A DNA stretch of 64,000 bases. Origin: Escherichia coli. Its GTDB lineage: Bacteria > Pseudomonadota > Gammaproteobacteria > Enterobacterales > Enterobacteriaceae. The position numbers were made by a program, and so were the translations under genes. Positions 38,390 to 38,705 of this stretch are shown here, one piece after another (positions within the stretch are counted from its first letter, which is position 1; every line of letters starts with the position of its first letter). Where the stretch lies: the NCBI RefSeq assembly GCF_030013205.1, contig NZ_CP122648.1, one strand, 5' to 3'. The notes under the pieces are model-generated. The model did not search any database. It worked only from the letters and a program-made list of their open reading frames with translations, and was not told where the DNA came from.

Positions 38390-38705
38390 TTGGGGCCATT
38401 TTGACTCATAGAGGAAAGCATCGCGCACAAACTTTTTCAGTTTATTTGTTGACTTTATATTCTATTGTTATCTTTATTTATAGATTTTTATATTGCATGA
38501 GGTGGTTTTTGGAGAGAAGAATGAGGAAGTTGCTTCGAGACACAGAAACGTTAGCTTTACATTTAGCGGAGGTGATGTGAAATTAATTTACAAGAGAAAT
38601 GATTTACATATCAAACAGTTAGATGCTTTTTGTCGTTTTATAATATTTTTATGCTTGAGAAAAAATACGTAACTTATTTATGATATGGACAGTTTTGGCC
38701 CCAAT
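38390..38705. promoter_or_regulatory. fimS: fimS invertible phase-variation switch
   Basis: 9-bp inverted repeats TTGGGGCCA (38390-38398) and TGGCCCCAA (38697-38705) bounding about 300 bp between fimA and fimE. Confidence 0.9.
38655..38684 (+). promoter_or_regulatory. sigma-70 promoter inside fimS, pointing toward fimE (phase-OFF orientation of the fimA promoter)
   Basis: TTGAGA-N18-TATGAT on the plus strand with predicted start just inside the fimE-proximal inverted repeat; fimA is on the minus strand on the opposite side. Confidence 0.55.

Follow-up and report, generated by a model that had tools for sequence, protein, structure and literature searches.

In which phase was the promoter switch of the type 1 fimbriae assembled in this Escherichia coli genome, and does its orientation describe the strain or the culture that was sequenced? 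The locus lies in a stretch of 64,000 nucleotides that was analysed in full (the window), which equals E. coli ETEC4079 (pig faeces, Belgium; NZ_CP122643.1, 4374690-4438689) with 0 mismatches. A repeat search of the window delimited the fimS invertible element at 38390-38704 (315 bp), between fimE and fimA, both of which are on the minus strand. Its two boundaries were located by sequence search: i) IRR, the fimA-proximal 9-bp inverted repeat (TTGGGGCCA, 38390-38398), and ii) IRL, the fimE-proximal 9-bp inverted repeat (TGGCCCCAA, 38696-38704), which is the complement of TTGGGGCCA. Both repeats are perfect and each occurs only once within the 64-kb window. The element therefore has the architecture of fimS, a segment of ~314 bp (315 bp here) flanked by 9-bp inverted repeats whose sequence is that given in PMC9820224. 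The first-pass annotation had run the element to 38705, one base too far, since IRL ends at 38704; the asymmetric TACGTA site that it had placed within the switch is indeed present, at 38666-38671, where it forms the SnaBI site that is standard in orientation assays and occurs only once in the assay amplicon. The OL4/OL20 assay reads the orientation from a BstUI site (CGCG), which is at 38423-38426. Searches of the whole window with Rfam (at the gathering threshold) and ARAGORN returned no match.

The gene order around the element is fimB-fimE-fimS-fimAICDFGH, and the minus strand carries every fim-cluster gene of the window. Both fimB (39825..40427; 200 aa) and fimE (38752..39348; 198 aa) encode tyrosine recombinases and are so annotated in the identical ETEC4079 record. 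FimB is 100% identical to K-12 FimB, with the catalytic R47/H141/R144/Y176 read off the sequence, and FimE is likewise 100% identical to its K-12 counterpart, with R41/H136/R139/Y171 present (the catalytic R-H-R-Y residues of the Fim recombinases being those listed in PMC9820224). Thus the element sits between fimE and fimA with two intact R-H-R-Y tyrosine recombinases encoded directly upstream. On the other side, open reading frames and the annotation of the identical ETEC4079 record defined the structural operon fimAICDFGH (31669..38270, minus strand), which consists of fimA (37716-38270), fimI (37112-37651), fimC (36350-37075), fimD (33647-36283), fimF (33107-33637), fimG (32591-33034) and fimH (31669-32571), all on the minus strand, all open and none of them carrying a pseudogene flag.

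To read the phase of the element, three published and experimentally defined orientation assays were applied in silico, and all of them returned phase OFF for the window. Under the OL4/OL20 assay with BstUI, the window as sequenced yielded 188+540 bp, while inversion of 38390-38704 yielded 435+293 bp; the published sizes are 187+539 for OFF and 433+293 for ON (PMC9993118). Under the assay in which a 601-bp amplicon is cut with SnaBI, the window as sequenced yielded 440+162 bp and the inverted form 405+197 bp, the published sizes being 440+161 for OFF and 403+198 for ON (PMC11724981). The in-silico and published sizes were off by 1-2 bp, as against a gap of ~100 bp between ON and OFF; moreover the K-12 MG1655 deposit produced OFF fragments (188+540 and 440+162) in the same digests with the same 1-bp offsets, and thus the offsets come from the size-counting convention. 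The literature landmarks point the same way: i) in phase OFF, the published Fis site is separated from the right-hand repeat by 50 bp and lies at the end of the element distal to the fimA promoter, which places that promoter at the opposite end, where the promoter hexamers described below are found; ii) PMC6458436 describes the UTI89 reference as OFF; iii) the reference orientation makes up 98-99% in K-12 cultures (PMC4272514); and iv) FimE-bearing strains are essentially all OFF (PMC2636892). Window 38390-38704 is thus almost certainly the E. coli fimS promoter element assembled in phase OFF.

This agrees with the OFF call of the first-pass annotation, which had named alignment to a defined ON or OFF orientation as the test that could overturn it: the restriction assays gave OFF sizes, the ON pattern appeared only upon in-silico inversion, and the window is collinear with the fimS of the K-12 MG1655 deposit, with OFF digests in both. 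The annotation had further spoken of the sequenced molecule as representing non-fimbriate cells. Here the orientation stood and the reference to a single molecule or cell did not, since a consensus assembly records no more than the prevailing orientation of the culture.

The candidate fimA promoter is TTGAGA-N18-TATGAT on the plus strand (38655-38684), with its -35 hexamer at 38655-38660 and its -10 hexamer at 38679-38684. It lies 11 nt from IRL and is aimed at fimE, away from fimA, so that the coordinates, spacer and direction first proposed for it were reproduced. At 10/12, it was the top promoter-like score in 38200-38900, while the other three sites (at 38434 and 38465 on the plus strand and 38614 on the minus strand) scored 9/12, which is chance level, and were set aside. 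The scanned region is 68% A+T, and its number of promoter-like sites (n=4, versus 2.2 +/- 1.7 in shuffles) was not above chance; therefore pattern statistics alone prove nothing, and support for the assignment comes from conservation of the hexamers and their position relative to published landmarks. Both hexamers were invariant in 9/9 diverse fimS copies, with a spacer of 17 or 18 nt, and they face fimA in both ON assemblies examined (ETEC4070 and EC93). We take these hexamers to be the ones assigned to the fimA promoter by Olsen and Klemm in 1994, who reportedly mapped the fimA start site. The exact -35/-10 assignment is that of a candidate, resting on this attribution together with conservation and position.

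Does the segment actually invert? Among complete E. coli genomes (n=5,426), the region was present in 4,719; the orientation was the same as in the window in 4,449 and inverted in 245 (~95% OFF and ~5% ON), while the remaining 25 of the 4,719 are presumably rearranged. A comparison of the two sets gave no reliable sign that alleles like that of the window are enriched among ON assemblies, as the identity bands mix full and partial matches. Further evidence came from a sister pig isolate, ETEC4070 (NZ_CP122676.1), whose differences from window positions 36271-40751 were confined to 38399-38695 and which became identical to the window over those 4.5 kb once 38390-38704 was inverted. The sister isolate thus carries the same sequence with its 315-bp element in the ON orientation, an inversion at exactly these repeats. 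Furthermore, near-clonal isolates differ in phase (ETEC4071 is OFF and ETEC4070 is ON), and the 315-bp allele was also assembled inverted in the O139:H1 strains W13-16 and P15-25. Together with the K-12-identical FimB and FimE, the inversion in ETEC4070 shows that the switch is active in this lineage and not locked. OFF is here a phase, not a lesion.

The K-12 MG1655 element shares the position between fimE and fimA, the 9-bp repeats, the hexamers with their spacer and the SnaBI and BstUI landmarks, and the fimE-fimA intergenic region of that genome is 98% identical to, and collinear with, that of the window, in the same OFF deposit orientation. It differs in length (314 bp, versus 315 bp here) and by about a dozen substitutions; another difference is an IS2 that lies 1.2 kb upstream of fimB in the window.

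Three other explanations of the observed orientation were weighed. If the window were really in phase ON, the true fimA promoter would have to lie elsewhere, for example at the minus-strand TTGATA-N18-TAAATT (38614-38585), which does face fimA. Such a 9/12 match is however at chance level in A+T-rich DNA, and this reading conflicts with all three orientation assays, with the K-12 and UTI89 references (which are OFF or in the majority non-fimbriate state and share the orientation of the window) and with the published Fis site, which marks the 38390 end as promoter-distal; its probability is practically negligible. A genetic lock in the OFF state, via a defect in the recombinases, in the repeats or through an extra base by the repeat, could draw on two features of the window, namely the extra A/T directly beside IRL, in the recombinase half-site region, and the IS2 1.2 kb upstream of fimB. 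Yet both recombinases are identical to those of K-12 and both repeats are perfect, the same 315-bp allele is found inverted in ETEC4070, W13-16 and P15-25, and ETEC4070, otherwise identical over 4.5 kb, most likely has the IS2 too. A lock was rejected on the strength of the intact recombinases and repeats and of the inverted sister alleles, and we consider it exceedingly unlikely.

It might also be argued that the assembler produced the orientation as an artefact or picked it arbitrarily from a roughly mixed population, and that it reveals little of the culture, since invertible segments are heterogeneous in culture and assemblers output one form. Against this, FimE-bearing cultures are 98-99% in this orientation, 95% of the complete genomes agree in orientation, and the junctions, which are clean, match those of five other sister assemblies exactly, making an artefact or an arbitrary pick very improbable. 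The favoured reading remains a working switch whose OFF form was in the majority.

With promoter activity, accessory-protein binding, Rho termination and antisense transcription taken from the literature or inferred, the OFF state in the window can be pictured as follows. Aimed at fimE, the candidate promoter (38655-38684, plus strand) would leave fimAICDFGH promoterless, and no type 1 fimbriae would be made. FimB and FimE would recombine the 9-bp repeats and flip the segment, aided by IHF, Lrp, Fis and H-NS; in the literature, FimB inverts fimS both ways and FimE mainly from ON to OFF, with the same four accessory factors assisting. A strong ON-to-OFF drive by FimE would keep ordinary cultures overwhelmingly OFF, and the consensus assembly would then be OFF as well. 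In this orientation, read-through from fimE would be ended by a Rho-dependent terminator, and RNA started at the fimA promoter would run antisense into the 3' end of fimE, as has already been proposed in published work.

Sites for two of these factors, IHF and Fis, were predicted. The IHF consensus WATCAANNNNTTR had only 3 matches in the 64-kb window, and 2/3 were at published IHF positions: i) TATCAATAAGTTA at 38737..38749 (plus strand), outside the switch and adjoining IRL, at the position of IHF-1; and ii) a match at 38609..38621 (plus strand), inside the switch and 34 bp upstream of the -35 hexamer, at the position of IHF-2. According to the literature, IHF-1 adjoins IRL, and the fimA promoter is boosted by IHF-2 from a position within fimS. 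As sequence matches, the window thus has IHF sites both beside IRL and inside the element, and we regard them as predicted IHF-1 (38737-38749) and IHF-2 (38609-38621) sites. A probable Fis site, GTTGACTTTATATTC at 38448..38462 (plus strand), lies ~50 bp inside IRR, its position being predicted from the distance given in the literature and from reading of the sequence.

According to published work, fimS holds a Rho-dependent terminator for fimE mRNA that works in just one of the two orientations. The candidate for this phase-variable fimE terminator is a stretch rich in C and poor in G, present only in the OFF orientation, in the RNA read through from fimE (38498..38577, minus strand); there, C minus G reached 19 over 80 nt, the peak of the element. 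Over the whole element, the C/G ratio of the fimE read-through RNA was 1.70 in OFF versus 0.59 in ON, that is, the RNA is C-rich only in OFF. We infer from this composition the placement of the published terminator at 38498-38577. No intrinsic terminator-like hairpin was found in 38200-38900, which fits a Rho-dependent mechanism.

The length of the element, 315 bp versus 314 bp in K-12, stems from one extra A/T in the run beside IRL: the T run at 38692-38695, which reads as A on the fim sense strand, exceeds by one base that of K-12 and of six other lineages. The extra base does not block inversion, as the 315-bp allele is found in both orientations among sister strains. Upstream, an annotated IS2 occupies window positions 41631-42961 in the nanC-fimB intergenic region, as a 1,331-bp insertion with a 5-bp target duplication; relative to K-12, it lies upstream of both genes, 1,204 bp from the ATG of fimB and 252 bp from that of nanC. 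GGTATA repeats resembling the NanR operator (41441-41455) stay on the fimB side of the IS2, and hence the insertion more likely cuts nanC, rather than fimB, off from its regulators. ETEC4070 covers 99% of a 24-kb query that contains the IS2 and most likely carries it also, while sister ETEC strains that cover 94% of the query in two pieces appear to be without it. With its extra A/T in the recombinase half-site near the transcription start, the 315-bp allele may alter the switching bias or promoter output relative to K-12, to which the IS2 could add, giving the lineage a different ON frequency; we consider such an effect improbable.

The length of fimS varied among E. coli, from 298 to 327 bp in the copies compared. 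In cattle strain 105, 16 bp are deleted upstream of the -35 hexamer, which leaves a fimS of 298 bp, and we presume that this deletion resembles one reported in O157:H7. PEC1021 has a duplication of ~13 bp and a fimS of 327 bp, and in ST131 strain EC958 the promoter spacer is 17 nt and fimS is 313 bp.

The fimS switch is already known: a 314-bp invertible element was reportedly described by Abraham et al. in 1985, and the switch has been textbook phase variation since then. OFF is moreover the norm for deposited genomes and the usual state of laboratory cultures. The orientation of fimS in an assembly mirrors culture conditions and the majority of reads and is not a property of the strain, as the near-clonal ETEC4071 and ETEC4070 illustrate, and its importance beyond correct annotation is slight. 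Among comparable systems, the hin/H segment of Salmonella is an invertible promoter between inverted repeats, with hin encoding a serine invertase. The other Fim-recombinase switches of E. coli, ipuS and hyxS, are like fimS in that a short promoter segment between inverted repeats is flipped by a site-specific recombinase. The repeats, targets and recombinases of ipuS, hyxS and hin differ from those of fimS, however, and none of the three is at this locus.

Several further features were observed elsewhere in the window. A BrnT/BrnA toxin-antitoxin pair (11160-12632) adjoins an IS1 pseudogene and a truncated dienelactone hydrolase gene. Beyond nanM, the interval 45346-51933 holds truncated sialate O-acetylesterase and phosphorothioate-dependent restriction genes, an HNH endonuclease gene, JAB-domain, antirestriction, DUF932 and DUF905 genes and fragments of IS66 and IS3, and resembles what is left of an integrative element. 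The operon for ferric citrate uptake, fecIRABCDE (52070-59615), has IS3-family fragments and an IS30 on its two sides, with flanks extending to 62901, which suggests that it arrived as a mobile block. Finally, positions 63623-64000 belong to a gene whose product has an AbiJ-NTD4 domain, possibly an abortive-infection defence gene, which extends past the end of the window.
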